Virus record (IMG/VR): IMGVR_UViG_3300044643_002008
Span: 1 to 64,000 of that record
Reading direction: 5' to 3' (one strand)
Source of the DNA: a virus
Length of the DNA stretch: 64,000 bases
The notes beneath the pieces are model-generated. The model was not told the origin of the DNA. It did not search any database and saw only the letters and a list, made by a program, of their open reading frames with translations. A program made the translations under genes and the position numbers. This document shows positions 13,837 through 29,571 of the stretch, one piece after another (the first letter of the stretch is position 1; every line of letters starts with the position of its first letter).

Positions 13837-14904
13837 CTATTCTACTTCCTTGAGCTCATACCAGCCTTTACCCCAAAGACTCTGTAGGCGAGTGAAGTAC
13901 TTCTCGTACATGAGACCCACCGCGTCTAATCCGTACCTATCTTTTGAGTATTTACTAATTAGCGCCCTATCCAAAGACTTGACATTTTCTGCCGCGTCTA
14001 CAAACTCTTGCAACGTATGGCATCTATAACCGGTAACCCCGTCAATCACTGTCTCAGTAAAAGCTCCCCAGTCTGTGGAAATAACCGGAGACCCGCAGGC
14101 CATTGCCTCGATAGCTACTGTGCCAAACGGCTCTACATAAATAGTCGGGGTAAAGGTGGCAATTGCCCCACCCATGAGCTTTGCCCGCTCTTCTGTCCCA
14201 ACTACCCCTACGTACTCCCCGTAGGAGGGCGGAGTACCCTGTCCAGCGACTACCAGACGCTTTCCTAGGGCCTTACAGACGTCTACGGCTATCTGATAGC
14301 CCTTCCGCTCTATAAGTCGTCCTATGTACAGGTAGTAGTCCTCTGGCTCCTCCTGGAAAGGAAAGTCGTCAACATCTATGTAGCTCGGGATTACGGTGTC
14401 GTAGAACTTGCCGTCGAGGGCGTGAGGGTCGGTCACCTTGGAGCCATAGCAGGAGTGCATCCAGGCATAGGACTCGAAAACCTTGTACTGAGCAAACGAG
14501 CCTCCGTAGCCAATCCCGAACTCAACGCTGAGCTCCTGCGGAAAAGCATCTGCAATTGGTTTTGAGGCATAGCCGGCGATAAGGCAGATAAAATCCTTGT
14601 GCTCTAAACGTTCCTGGATTCCCTTAATAACATTGTCATTGAATTTAACCCAGTGAGGGAGACTCCAATTAAACGACGCGGCGGAGTAGTGATTGCCCCC
14701 TACTGCTGCTAGACGCTCTTCCTCTGTAATGCACTGAACATGTTCGTCACAGGGAGCTTCGTTGAATTCGCCTCCATACAGAAAAACTGTATGACCGAGG
14801 TTTTTCATCATTATGCAGAACTTGCGGACCTTTTCCGTATAAGCACAGGCTGTGAAGTCTTCGGTCGTGTTTGTGTGAGGTAGTGAAACCACATGAAATC
14901 TCAT
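13837..14904 (-). CDS. Glycosyltransferase family 4 (GT-B)
   Basis: YIGRLIERKG and EPFGTVAIEAMACGSPVI (E-x7-E). Confidence 0.93.
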   Translation of the reverse strand: MRFHVVSLPHTNTTEDFTACAYTEKVRKFCIMMKNLGHTVFLYGGEFNEAPCDEHVQCITEEERLAAVGGNHYSAASFNWSLPHWVKFNDNVIKGIQERLEHKDFICLIAGYASKPIADAFPQELSVEFGIGYGGSFAQYKVFESYAWMHSCYGSKVTDPHALDGKFYDTVIPSYIDVDDFPFQEEPEDYYLYIGRLIERKGYQIAVDVCKALGKRLVVAGQGTPPSYGEYVGVVGTEERAKLMGGAIATFTPTIYVEPFGTVAIEAMACGSPVISTDWGAFTETVIDGVTGYRCHTLQEFVDAAENVKSLDRALISKYSKDRYGLDAVGLMYEKYFTRLQSLWGKGWYELKEVE

Positions 14905-15563
14905 GACTGGATGTTATCCTGGGCGACGCTTCCTACAGAGCCAATACGAGAATCTATTCTGTCGCTACTGCCAGGGTAGATGTTTCTCAACTTCTCACCG
15001 TCTGCCGTCGTTATAGCACCGCCATGAATTACTTTGCCAGGGCTAAATCCGTAACAAGCGTTAATCACGTCGCACACGCCAAACATTGCAATCGATAATC
15101 TTTTGCGACGCCACTTTTCAGCCGTAGTTATTTGCTGAATCATTGGGTCGCCTGCGCGCCAGTTAATCATTGAGGCCCATGTAGACATGTATTCTTTTTC
15201 AAGAACGCGAGAAGCCTCAGCGCCTTCTAGTACTGTTCCCCACGGATATCTGCCATCTGCAAAACCAAGCAATATAAAATGTGCTGGCTGAATATGTCTG
15301 CCATCAAGAAGAACAAACCACATTTTGGTCATTTCTTCTTCAGGGCCAAACACTTCCTCTCGGTAGTAATTCGCTATGAGGCGGCCATCTTCGTCAACTT
15401 CTCCCCAGCCCCAAAGGGTTTTTTTGCCAGGAAGTTCCTCGTCTGCGGTGTACCACCTCTTCGGTGGAAGCTCACCGTCAGTTGAAAGCCAACGGATATC
15501 GAGGAAACGGTCGTTAAGTTTTTTGCCTGTATCAACGGCATATGTAGAAGGTAGGTTTGCCAT
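14901..15563 (-). CDS. Hypothetical protein, possible GNAT-like acyltransferase
   Basis: IQQITTAEKWRRKRLSIAMF resembles GNAT motif A; HGGAITTADGEKL follows. Confidence 0.45.
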   Translation of the reverse strand: MANLPSTYAVDTGKKLNDRFLDIRWLSTDGELPPKRWYTADEELPGKKTLWGWGEVDEDGRLIANYYREEVFGPEEEMTKMWFVLLDGRHIQPAHFILLGFADGRYPWGTVLEGAEASRVLEKEYMSTWASMINWRAGDPMIQQITTAEKWRRKRLSIAMFGVCDVINACYGFSPGKVIHGGAITTADGEKLRNIYPGSSDRIDSRIGSVGSVAQDNIQS

Positions 15564-26700: not shown

Positions 26701-29571
26701 GTCCTTAACAAGAATACGGTCACCAGCATCTGCTGCATGTGAGTCAATCGTTAATGCGCCAAAAGTTGTTGCCTGGAGATACGCACCAAGACCAGTTCCG
26801 TTGTTGTTGTCAGCAGAGCCAGCAGTGTATGCAGGGCTGTTGGGAAGAACTGCGGATGTAGCGATATGTGCTGATTCATGCGAGTTAAGGTTTCCGACTG
26901 GACCTGTTGCTCCTACTGGGCCTGTGGGGCCAGTGGCTCCAGTTGCACCAGTTAAGCCTGTTGCACCAGTTGGTCCAATATCACCAGTTCTATAAAAATA
27001 GAAATTAAGGTCATCAAAATAGCCAGGGAGAGAAGAGCCACTAATATGAGTAACAGGTATTTTGTAATATCCAGTCGCAGCAACAACAGAGCCAGATATT
27101 CCGAAAACAGCACCATATCCAGCGGAAGACGCAGCACGCTGTAGTGTTATGTATCCTTTAAATGTGCTTGTTGAGTCGTCAAGCGATGCCAGCCAAGAAC
27201 TCTGGTTGTTGCTATACAAGTCTGTGTTGTTAACATAAATCCATGTAACAGAAGACATCGTGGATGAATTAAACTTAAAGAAAGCATTGTCTGGAATACT
27301 GTCTGCTGTGTCCGTGTCAAAGTACCAGCCAAATCCAGGACGAACACCTACTGGGCCAGTTATTCCAGTGGCACCTGTTGGTCCTGTCGCTCCTGTTGCG
27401 CCGACTAAGCCTTGTGAGCCAGATGCTCCGATTGTGCCAATCGGTCCGGTAGCTCCAGTTGCTCCTTGGTCTCCTTGTGGGCCAGTTGGGCCTTCTGGTC
27501 CAGTTGCACCAGCAGGGCCTGTTTCGCCTTGGATTCCTGTAGCACCTGTAAGACCCGTAGGTCCAGTAGGACCAGTATCGCCTGTTGGTCCAGTATCTCC
27601 TGTGGCTCCAGTTAAGCCCGTAGCACCTGTGTCTCCCGTGGCACCTGTTTCTCCAGTAGCACCCGTTAGACCTGTAGGACCCGTAGCACCGGTTGCGCCA
27701 TCTGAACCTACATATCCATCCGCACCACTTGGCCCAGTTGCGCCCGTAGCGCCTTCTGGTCCAACTGGACCTGTAGCGCCCATTGGGCCAGTTGGGCCCG
27801 TTGGACCCTCTACGCCGGTCGCGCCCTCTGGACCGGTCGCACCTTCTGGGCCAGTTGGTCCAGTTGCACCTTCTGGACCAATTATGTTTCCGATTAAATA
27901 CCACGTGAGTGAAAGATTTACTAAAACATCTCCGGTGTTGATATTGTAGAAAAGGTCATTGTCTTTGTATCCTGGTCCTGGACCAGTTGCACCCGGAGTT
28001 GGGTCTTCCGCTCCTATGTACCATCTCGTTCCAGCCACTCCAGTGGGACCAGTGGGGCCGCTTGTTCCGTTTGCTCCACTCGGACCAGTACTTCCTGTGG
28101 GCCCAGTTTCACCTTTTGATACAGCAAGTGCCCAATACTCAGTATCAGTTGGAAGTTGATTAGTACTCGGCGCTATTGCAAAATAAGAAGAACCTAGATA
28201 AAAAACAATGTCATTTACTACGTAAGACTCTTCGCTGTCCCATGTTCCACGCAAAACAGCAGCAGCAGGTCCAGTTGGGCCAAGTATATTTCCAGTTGGA
28301 TACCATGTGAGTGAATAATTTACTAAAGTATCGCCAGTAGATGTATTAAGAAAATAATCGCCATCTATAGCACCAAGACCAGTCGAACCTGGAAGTGGGT
28401 CTTCGCTTCCGGAAAACCATCTTGAGCCACGTATCCCTGTAGGTCCAGTTGCTCCTGTCGCCCCAATATCTCCTGCATCACCCGTGCGAGTAAAAGAGAT
28501 GTATACAGTTTGTAAACCACCAAACGATGTTACGGAACCAGAAAGATATTCACAGTCAACTTCAAAATATCCAGCCTGTTCTGTTGATGCTGTAATTTCA
28601 AATACTGCAAAATTGGAAGGAATAAATCTGTTAAAAATTGTAAAGTGACCCTTAATACCGCTAGTGCTATCTCCGATAGTGCGCAAGAAAACTTGCATAT
28701 CAGTAAAGGCACCGCCGCTTGGACCCTCTAGGTCATCAATGAACATTTTTGACGCAAGCGTTAAGTCGGCGTTATTAAATTTTGCTCCGCCCTCGCCTGG
28801 GTCTGTGTTTTCAGTATTTGCATCAAATGTGTATTGAAGAGACACTCCCCCTGGAATTCCTCTTTGACCATCATTTCCATTAAACCCAGACGGCCCTGTA
28901 GCGCCTTCTGGGCCAGTTGGACCAGTTGGACCAGTCGCTCCCGTTTCCCCAAGTACATGAAAAACCCAATCTGAAGCAAGTGAGCCGCCCGTATTGGTTG
29001 CATACACCTGCATTGATTCGTTTGTGGTTACATTTACATATCCCTCAATAAAGGAACTTGGGTTAGATTGTGAAACAGCACGAACAAACTGATTATCTTG
29101 ATATGCTCCAGTATCTGATGTAAGAAACATGAAGGGACTTGAAGGTCCTGGCTGTATTGTTGTGGTTGAGTAAACAACATATCCTGGTCCAGTCGGTCCA
29201 GTCGGTCCAGTTGCGCCAGTTACACCTGTAGGTCCAGTTGGGCCAGTTGGGCCAGCATCTCCTGTATATGGAACAAACTTTGCACCATCAAAACGAAGAA
29301 TCTGACCAGAAGATGCGCCTGAAGTATCAACTTCAATTCCGTCAACAAAAAGAGCAGGGACTTTTAATGTGTCGTCGGTCTTGAGAACATTGGCTTCGTC
29401 ACGGTAGAGATTTACATCTCCGACTGCAGTTCCGTCGCCCCAGACAAGGCGACCACCAGCCTGAACCTGGAGTCTTGAGTAGGTATCGCCATCAACAAAA
29501 ATCGTCAACCCATCAGAGCCAGCAGAAGACAGCTGTTTGATTGTAATCGGAGTTGTAAATTTTTGAGCCAT
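23704..29571 (-). CDS. Giant collagen-like tail fibre/filament protein (1955 aa)
   Basis: Many Gly-Pro-Thr/Gly-Ala-Thr runs separated by repeated globular modules. Confidence 0.9.

Follow-up and report, generated by a model that had tools for sequence, protein, structure and literature searches.

A mobile cassette linking a flavin-dependent halogenase and a prolyl-4-hydroxylase-type oxygenase to a histidine-rich protein among the tail-fibre genes of uncultured lake myophages

Since the first cyanophage genomes, 'tryptophan halogenases' of phages have been familiar, and one of them, the cyanophage enzyme VirX1, has been structurally solved and used as a biocatalyst. We here analyze a flavin-dependent halogenase encoded in the first 64 kb (the window) of the 77.2-kb IMG/VR record IMGVR_UViG_3300044643_002008, a record estimated to be about half complete which, judged by its genes, stems from an uncultured, contractile-tailed lake phage (a myophage). 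The halogenase gene lies within positions 16338–23468, which hold one instance of a mobile and conserved cassette of 8–10 genes found where uncultured lake myophages encode their tail fibres. This cassette also encodes a prolyl-4-hydroxylase (P4H)-type 2-oxoglutarate (2OG)-Fe(II) oxygenase, a relative of the DUF6065 family and a pair of Gly-rich proteins, here called Gly254 and its 449-residue paralogue, the latter carrying a His-rich insert and being the protein that we tentatively consider as the substrate of the cassette enzymes.

The described enzymes closest to the window halogenase are VirX1 (6qgm), BrvH (6frl), Xcc4156 (6y1w) and the cyanophage 'PrnA', orphan halogenases of the same Pfam family having the same catalytic motifs, and for VirX1, BrvH and the cyanophage enzyme the native substrates are not known (PMC7754283, PMC8407142, PMC2984593). 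BrvH rejects free tryptophan (PMC7754283), and VirX1 has a large, accessible active site, with no natural product listed (PMC8407142). The roles hitherto proposed for phage halogenases concern antibiotics, secondary metabolites or the decoration of polysaccharides (PMC2984593, PMC7824862). Phage halogenases often adjoin a 2OG oxygenase, as is the case in the window; the cultured phages checked, unlike the window, lack the Gly254/His-rich pair, and the halogenases of cultured phages are only 26–38% identical to that of the window. Flavin halogenases acting on gene-encoded peptides do exist in the pathways of peptides made on the ribosome and then modified after translation (RiPPs), where SrpI, MibH and ChlH give precedent for action on ribosomal polypeptides encoded nearby (PMC10858898, 10.1101/2025.01.12.632611). 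The substrates of these enzymes are, however, short leader–core peptides that become secreted natural products, whereas the candidate in the window is a 449-residue protein with folded Gly-rich domains. The term 'RiPP-like', as used for this region in the first-pass annotation, should therefore be taken as an analogy only, as should the resemblance of the insert to RiPP precursors in its pattern of conserved flanks and variable core. No protease or transporter families were found among the Pfam and PHROG family matches in 11671–31100.

With regard to the oxygenase, the collagen P4H of the Chlorella virus PBCV-1 (5c5t) and the P4H of Bacillus anthracis (3itq, 5hv0) have the HxD...H triad and the Lys that binds 2OG in common with the window enzyme, and are likewise small P4Hs encoded alongside Pro/Gly-rich repeat proteins. 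The similarity is weak (E ≈5e-7 over about 80–90 residues), and the window oxygenase is locked in a cassette that also encodes a halogenase and a His-rich protein. To our knowledge, no such halogenase/His-rich cassette has been described for either of the two P4H systems.

To define the cassette, related loci were gathered in three ways, via the halogenase, via Gly254 and via a neighbouring fibre gene located at 29811–31100. The set fetched via the halogenase comprised 80 loci (45–97% identity), which were scored by tblastn with the window proteins. The DUF6065 relative was present in 78 of them, the oxygenase in 77, Gly254 in 73, its His-bearing paralogue in 70 and a small membrane protein of 93 residues (TM93) in 52, with most of the missing genes explained by the contig ending before the gene. 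A GT4 glycosyltransferase was found in 17 of these loci and a 375-residue protein (g375) in 16, while the GNAT-like gene and the gene for a 228-residue protein were seen in one locus each. When loci were instead fetched via Gly254 and had at least 7 kb of downstream sequence, all 46 encoded the halogenase, the DUF6065 relative and the His-rich Gly-rich protein, with the oxygenase detected by tblastn in 42, TM93 in 38 and the GT4 gene, at varying positions, in 15. The loci fetched via the fibre gene, finally, had the halogenase in 10 of 10 cases with the Gly pair and in 0 of 16 without it, counting those with enough sequence. A FastTree phylogeny of this fibre gene interleaved cassette-bearing and cassette-less loci at short distances (L202 with L205 and L195, L164 with L159, L216 with L189 and L165 with L206; such labels are our own names for the fetched related stretches). 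Repeated gain or loss of the block would account for this, as would recombination of the fibre gene, and under both alternatives the block behaves as one piece.

We also clustered by blastp all open reading frames (ORFs) of 36 non-redundant complete loci, for which the presence of TM93 had been a selection criterion. The Gly-rich pair, the oxygenase, the halogenase and the DUF6065 relative were all present in every one of the 36, and TM93 in 34; the frequencies of g375 and of two small proteins, s77 and s129, are given in Table 1. The commonest order was Gly, Gly/His, s77, s129, oxygenase, halogenase, DUF6065 relative, a copy of s77, g375 and TM93, with the halogenase and DUF6065 genes adjacent in all 36 loci. 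Some of the loci had insertions of unrelated genes or extra oxygenases, and the flanking accessory genes turned over. The set was kept also where the order was scrambled, as with the oxygenase following the DUF6065 gene (L009-12), the Gly pair on the opposite strand (L060-63) or the enzymes placed first (L072/75), and the order was changed in L066-67 as well. We consider the cassette and its membership as established by these counts. The first-pass annotation had taken 13837–29571 as the unit, which the comparative loci narrowed to 16338–23468, and it had suggested testing whether enzyme content covaries with fibre type. Covariation was clear for the halogenase, the DUF6065 relative and the oxygenase of P4H type, all travelling with the Gly pair, and was not seen for the GT4 and GNAT-like genes, at the frequencies given above, nor for the large collagen fibres, which 4 of 15 cassette loci lacked and 4 of 16 cassette-less loci possessed. 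The GT4 gene, the GNAT-like gene, the gene for the 228-residue protein and the collagen fibre vary independently of the cassette, and the GT4 and GNAT-like genes and the collagen fibre are separate accessory genes.

Table 1. Features of the window discussed in the text, with cassette members listed first
Feature	Positions	Strand	Basis or remark
Gly254, core gene 1: 254-residue Gly-rich beta-solenoid protein with N-terminal fibre-type motif	22704–23468	minus	AlphaFold2 (AF2) model
449-residue paralogue, core gene 2: collagen-like G-X-Y runs and His-rich insert; candidate substrate	21353–22702	minus	BLASTP
His-rich insert of core gene 2 (residues 297–372)	21587–21814	minus	composition
s77, small protein of 77 residues	21110–21343	minus	in 35/36 loci
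s129, small protein of 129 residues	20721–21110	minus	in 31/36 loci
P4H-type 2OG-Fe(II) oxygenase	20148–20714	minus	PF13640, 1.8e-14
g375, 375-residue protein, semi-conserved, shifting position	19033–20160	minus	in 24/36 loci
Flavin-dependent halogenase	17565–19109; likely start ATG at 19046	minus	PF04820, 6e-96
DUF6065 relative, dUTPase-type fold	16790–17575	minus	profile and fold; overlaps halogenase stop by 11 nt
TM93, 93-residue protein with three hydrophobic segments, usual 3' end of block	16338–16619	minus	conserved in loci
Neighbouring fibre gene used as search anchor	29811–31100		basis for third locus set
1955-residue collagen-like (G-X-T) tail fibre, not core	23704–29571	minus	PF01391, 3e-52, and tail-fibre PHROGs
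Small partner gene	23468–23698	minus	gene call
220-residue protein, possibly GNAT-like, not core	14901–15563	minus	language-model lead only
GT4 glycosyltransferase, not core	13837–14904	minus	PF00534, 63.8 bits (cut-off 26.4), 1.9e-17; phrog_3408, 8e-89
Gly_rich_2-type fibre protein, not core	12512–13474	minus	PF21722, 1.9e-13; small partners 13476–13832 and 12153–12512
Baseplate-J-like gene	36006–37610	minus	gene call in window
Tail sheath	46381–47862	minus	gene call in window
Large terminase	57111–58415	minus	gene call in window
Portal and prohead protease	from 58709		gene calls in window

The halogenase was conserved in all of the residues considered catalytic, as numbered from the ATG at 19046. 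The GxGxxG motif (G13-S-G15-T-A-G18), K78 that aligns with the Lys of solved halogenases, the WxWxIP motif (GWMWEIP) and E329/E332 (FVEPLEA) were each kept in 97% or more of the 52 sequences compared, and by sequence the enzyme has an intact catalytic set. In the PDB it aligned over its full length with BrvH (6frl, 1.2e-57), with strong matches also to 5hy5, 6y1w and 2pyx and a match to VirX1 at 3e-38. Alignments to PrnA and RebH ended at query residues 428–446, while BrvH aligned up to residue 486, and on this basis the window enzyme resembles BrvH end to end, rather than the tryptophan-specific enzymes.

For the oxygenase, the iron triad H117-x-D119...H170 and the 2OG-binding K180 were found in 97% or more of the 54 sequences compared. 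Its PDB relatives were seven in number and all P4Hs, including those of PBCV-1 (5c5t, 4.7e-7), B. anthracis (3itq and 5hv0) and Chlamydomonas (2jig). Because the only solved relatives are peptidyl-prolyl 4-hydroxylases, with the Chlorella-virus collagen hydroxylase among them, a protein substrate is favoured, and we regard the affinity of the enzyme to protein hydroxylases as settled and its action on peptidyl-proline as putative. By the features tested, both this enzyme and the others of the cassette look like ordinary members of their families, and it is their combination with the Gly-rich pair in one mobile block for which we found no description. A search of the literature returned nothing joining halogenase, phage and histidine-rich. 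As a separate observation, locus L174 contained (11236–13134) more P4H-like oxygenases together with a glycosyltransferase-like gene, placed immediately behind the DUF6065 gene, and since some cassette loci such as this one hold further P4H-like oxygenases, the cassette region seems to accumulate them.

The first-pass annotation had recognized two paralogous Gly-rich proteins, one bearing His repeats, and this was confirmed by BLASTP (E 3e-11, 31% identity over 188 residues), with the alignment identifying Gly254 and the 449-residue protein as true paralogues over their N-terminal halves. The AF2 model of Gly254, with a mean confidence (pLDDT) of 86, was rich in beta-strands and resembled a beta-helix or solenoid. 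A Foldseek search of this model against the PDB found nothing, and the best PDB matches using VIA-align were adhesins and bactofilin at Z ≈6, which is below the level exceeding a common arrangement. In BFVD, Gly254 resembled predicted collagen-like proteins of giant viruses (E 3e-10), and also proteins of uncultured phages. The family lacks a Pfam model, had no match among 50,697 cultured phage records and comprised 1,112 representative clusters at E ≤1e-3, of which only 21 remained at 1e-30. Judged from these searches, Gly254 and its His-rich paralogue constitute an unnamed beta-solenoid/His-rich family, one that lake viromes contain widely and cultured phages lack.

The insert of the 449-residue protein contained 24 His in 76 residues, with nine HxH motifs, and ended in CC. 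Two 19-residue blocks within it were identical as protein and differed at 12 of 57 bases, all synonymously, and because the differences are confined to synonymous bases the insert peptide itself must be under selection. A His-rich insert was found in every orthologue examined, with 11–67 His per protein and up to 27 per 60 residues; these inserts were hypervariable in both sequence and length between conserved flanks, and were rich in Pro, Gly and Asn, frequently also holding Trp or Tyr. A dense array of HxH motifs in a protein of a phage fibre region is known from the needle at the tip of the long tail fibre of T4, gp37 (PMC11705849, citing Bartual et al. 2010). Compared with gp37, the insert is far denser in His and is hypervariable, located within a Gly-rich beta-solenoid protein. 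A phmmer search of the His-rich protein against the PDB gave no relative, the sole match being a Gly-linker artefact, and no sequence similarity to any solved chain, gp37 included, was thus detectable. Gly/His-rich structural proteins combined with metal coordination and halogenated residues are also found in polychaete jaws. The likeness of these metal-hardened jaw proteins to the phage protein is purely analogical, with unrelated organisms and another halogenating chemistry.

As the cassette enzymes were never separated from the His-rich paralogue in the cassette loci, we infer that they act on it, and the reading we prefer is thus that they mature the cassette's own His-rich protein. We assign this a probability of roughly 0.42. 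In a possible mechanism, the oxygenase would hydroxylate prolines at X-Pro-Gly and H-x-P-H sites of the His-rich protein, electron-rich side chains in or beside the insert (Tyr, Trp or possibly His) would be the targets of the halogenase, and the modifications might alter metal binding, cross-linking or stability of the fibre or of its tip. The roles of adaptors or chaperones that could be given to the DUF6065 relative, s77, s129 and g375 are guesses. The more specific proposal, that the halogenase and the prolyl hydroxylase form a system dedicated to modifying a full-length His-rich structural protein of the phage, we hold to be possible but doubtful.

Several points speak against maturation of the His-rich protein by these enzymes. 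All functional steps are drawn from gene neighbourhood and family membership, the Gly-rich proteins are only putative virion components, and the counts given above come from related phages and do not represent independent events. The insert of the window protein has no Trp and only two Tyr, both at its edges, and we know of no precedent for halogenation of His by a flavin halogenase. The genomes of P-SSM2 and HTVC008M have a halogenase–oxygenase pair with no Gly254, no His-rich partner and no adjacent DUF6065 gene, and the same is true for the lake-phage locus L059, where at 2822–4968 an oxygenase–halogenase pair (the halogenase 50% identical to that of the window) occurs without any of the three, with Gly_rich_2 fibres as well as an endolysin-like gene and a large terminase at its flanks. 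With no His-rich protein there, the pair would have another substrate at least in P-SSM2, HTVC008M and L059. The dUTPase fold of the invariant DUF6065 partner, as seen in its model, furthermore hints at a nucleotide-like ligand.

In a rival explanation, the enzymes would act on a target not encoded by the phage, such as a metabolite or a component of the host envelope, with the linkage to the Gly/His pair reflecting nothing else than co-mobility of a block within a plastic fibre region. The pairs found without Gly254 or a His-rich gene fit such a model, the window insert is poor in classical halogenation targets, the published ideas on phage halogenases concern small-molecule or polysaccharide chemistry (PMC2984593, PMC7824862) and the related enzymes BrvH and VirX1 take small aromatics in vitro (PMC7754283, PMC8407142). 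No scaffold synthase was however seen among the genes having a family match, and the solved relatives of the oxygenase are all protein hydroxylases. The Gly/His link was moreover perfect in loci with enough sequence, persisting through rearrangement and repeated gain or loss, and passive hitch-hiking is disfavoured because the other accessory genes of the region turn over while this link holds. We keep action on a target of this kind as a substantial, though less likely, rival.

Less probable still is that the insert would be a plain metal-binding HxH element of a fibre, similar to that of T4 gp37 and in need of no modification, with the enzymes serving another purpose or having their metal supplied or buffered by the His-rich protein. 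The nine HxH motifs would fit such a role, T4 gp37 is a documented case of HxH motifs that bind iron and fibres of marine phages are predicted to have them too (PMC11705849), and P-SSM2 has a collagen-like fibre with HxHSFSGSGS repeats far from its halogenase. This explanation leaves open why the His-rich protein of the cassette never occurs without the enzymes, and that protein lacks sequence similarity to any solved fibre; metal binding and modification could also coexist. We judge it improbable.

We have about equally little confidence in the broad model with which the region was first interpreted, where all of the enzymes encoded in 13837–20714, GT4 and GNAT-like proteins included, would decorate several neighbouring fibres. 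What stands of that interpretation is a narrower set of genes tied to the His-rich pair, with the GT4 gene, the GNAT-like gene and the collagen fibre falling outside. It is true that G-X-T collagen repeats and many Gly-rich fibres adjoin the enzymes, that a GT4 homologue lies beside a 2OG oxygenase in another cyanophage and that the halogenase of Synechococcus phage S-H38 lies within a few kb of a tail fibre and a Gly-rich protein. The frequencies of the GT4 and GNAT-like genes and the occurrence of collagen fibres without the cassette, and of the cassette without them, nonetheless argue against it, as does the finding that relatives lacking the cassette commonly have Gly_rich_2 fibres together with the small partner genes.

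The DUF6065 relative is the invariant neighbour of the halogenase. Its first designation as 'DUF6065-like' was upheld in part, since no Pfam model matched the window protein even at E 10, while a profile built from 38 orthologues retrieved PF19541-annotated proteins at E 1e-14 to 1e-22. Individually, 2 of the 38 orthologues matched PF19541 and 6 matched PF00692 (dUTPase). When the family was aligned with PF19541 proteins, the positions invariant in both were P..W, C, D, T..G.S, TD and R, and every top Foldseek match of the AF2 model (pLDDT 85.8) was a trimeric dUTPase. As judged by eye, the Asp of dUTPase motif I and the Thr-Asp-x-Tyr of motif III were conserved in position, whereas motif II was changed from RSS to GWS and motif V was weak in the window protein. 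It could thus be imagined that the protein binds a nucleotide, with the oxygenase and halogenase modifying its base, as the predicted fold, the PF00692 matches and the conserved motif I and III positions would suggest, but with the equivalents of motifs II and V altered, the block placed in a fibre module rather than among replication genes, an oxygenase of P4H type and not of TET/JBP or AlkB type, and bacterial DUF6065 genes located beside subtilase and asparagine synthase instead of nucleotide enzymes, we find action on nucleotide or DNA highly improbable.

Among 80 bacterial DUF6065 loci, none had a halogenase nearby. Those sampled had a subtilase (PF00082), in one case an asparagine synthase, and small unknowns as neighbours (Sinorhizobium L241, Hydrogenophaga L251), giving no functional clue. 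A DUF6065 relative adjoining the halogenase was not seen in the three cultured phages checked, and relatives were found in only five cultured-phage records. Our literature search yielded no paper mentioning DUF6065. Besides the gene that follows the halogenase, locus L080 had a second and more canonical DUF6065-like gene at 5264–5992, upstream of the cassette.

If the halogenase and the prolyl hydroxylase do form a system dedicated to the His-rich structural protein, that protein would be the first halogenated one of a virion and would give the first native substrate class for orphan halogenases of the BrvH/VirX1 type, halogenation or hydroxylation might tune a metal-binding fibre tip, and the invariant DUF6065 partner would represent a new accessory factor for protein halogenation. 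The cassette offers a concrete and nearby-encoded substrate candidate for viral halogenases, and its modification, if real, would extend the known modifications of virus particles by halogenation alongside proline hydroxylation and would give DUF6065 a role.

The remaining cassette members had few features by which they could be assigned. No family matches were found for g375, nor for s129 in the Pfam and PHROG searches. Many loci carried a second copy of s77 ahead of a g375 homologue, g375 usually following the DUF6065 gene together with that copy; in the clade of the window it was instead found between the oxygenase and the halogenase. TM93 was the most conserved gene of the block, being 73–92% identical where the halogenase was 45–58% identical, with the exception of a weak partial match in L067 (43% over half the length). 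As TM93 stays this similar while the halogenase diverges, its conservation suggests that it contacts something conserved in the host. A terminator-like hairpin (16345–16331, minus strand) at the TM93 gene stop gives weak evidence for an end of the block; in a scan for promoters and terminators the counts were under the shuffle mean, and this hairpin was the only one noted.

With regard to the setting, the minus strand holds every gene from 9949 to 58415, and the same-strand gene run with overlapping starts and stops described in the first-pass annotation could be recognized as an uninterrupted run from 29571 to 11671, wherein starts and stops mostly abut or overlap. The annotated collagen fibre, 2OG oxygenase, flavin halogenase and GT4 were all supported by the profile matches listed in Table 1, and the small partner between the collagen fibre and the Gly-rich pair as well as the further Gly-rich fibre gene were found as described. 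The collagen fibre scored 174.7 bits, with seven PF01391 stretches, and had 141 G-X-Y triplets lying in runs of eight or more. Support for the 'GNAT-like' assignment was limited to language-model neighbours, the nearest ESM Atlas clusters having Acetyltransf_1 in 18–49% of their members, and no Pfam, NCBIfam or PHROG match was obtained for this protein. Relatives of the GT4 protein in Synechococcus phage ACG-2014f adjoin a PiuC-type oxygenase. The Gly_rich_2 protein was not detectably related to the His-rich protein or to Gly254, and the trio that it forms with its two small partners recurred in the cassette-less relatives L186 and L059, of which L186 had many Gly_rich_2 fibres with the same small partners and no cassette member. 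The same stretch of DNA was found in lake-water DNA metagenomes from many studies, no RNA data set being listed as containing it, and megablast of the block against the 50,697 phage records gave no match, with no cultured phage close in nucleotides.

Some additional observations were made in cultured phages. In S-H38, a Gly-rich protein containing Cys and His is encoded 4.5 kb upstream of the halogenase, which is suggestive, although the protein is not homologous, and an apparently unannotated ORF 4.4 kb downstream of the halogenase (L342, record positions 70693–71016) encodes a signal peptide and a very His-rich tail, with 28 His in 108 residues. The collagen-like fibre of Prochlorococcus phage P-SSM2 (L317-L318, record positions 18944–20743) ends in its HxHSFSGSGS repeats, an array of HxH motifs such as are reported to bind iron, and is located about 155 kb from the halogenase. 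In the window, a PAPS-reductase-like gene (3'-phosphoadenosine 5'-phosphosulfate; 50750–51889, minus strand; phrog_2302, 2e-74) lies between the tail sheath and large terminase genes. Finally, the 563-residue protein encoded at 9949–11640 has a signal peptide and an FN3 domain (PF00041), long linkers rich in Thr/Ser, acidic repeats of the 'PLS.EE' type in series and a C-terminal tail that is hydrophobic; about 20 related loci had partial relatives of this protein downstream of the cassette.

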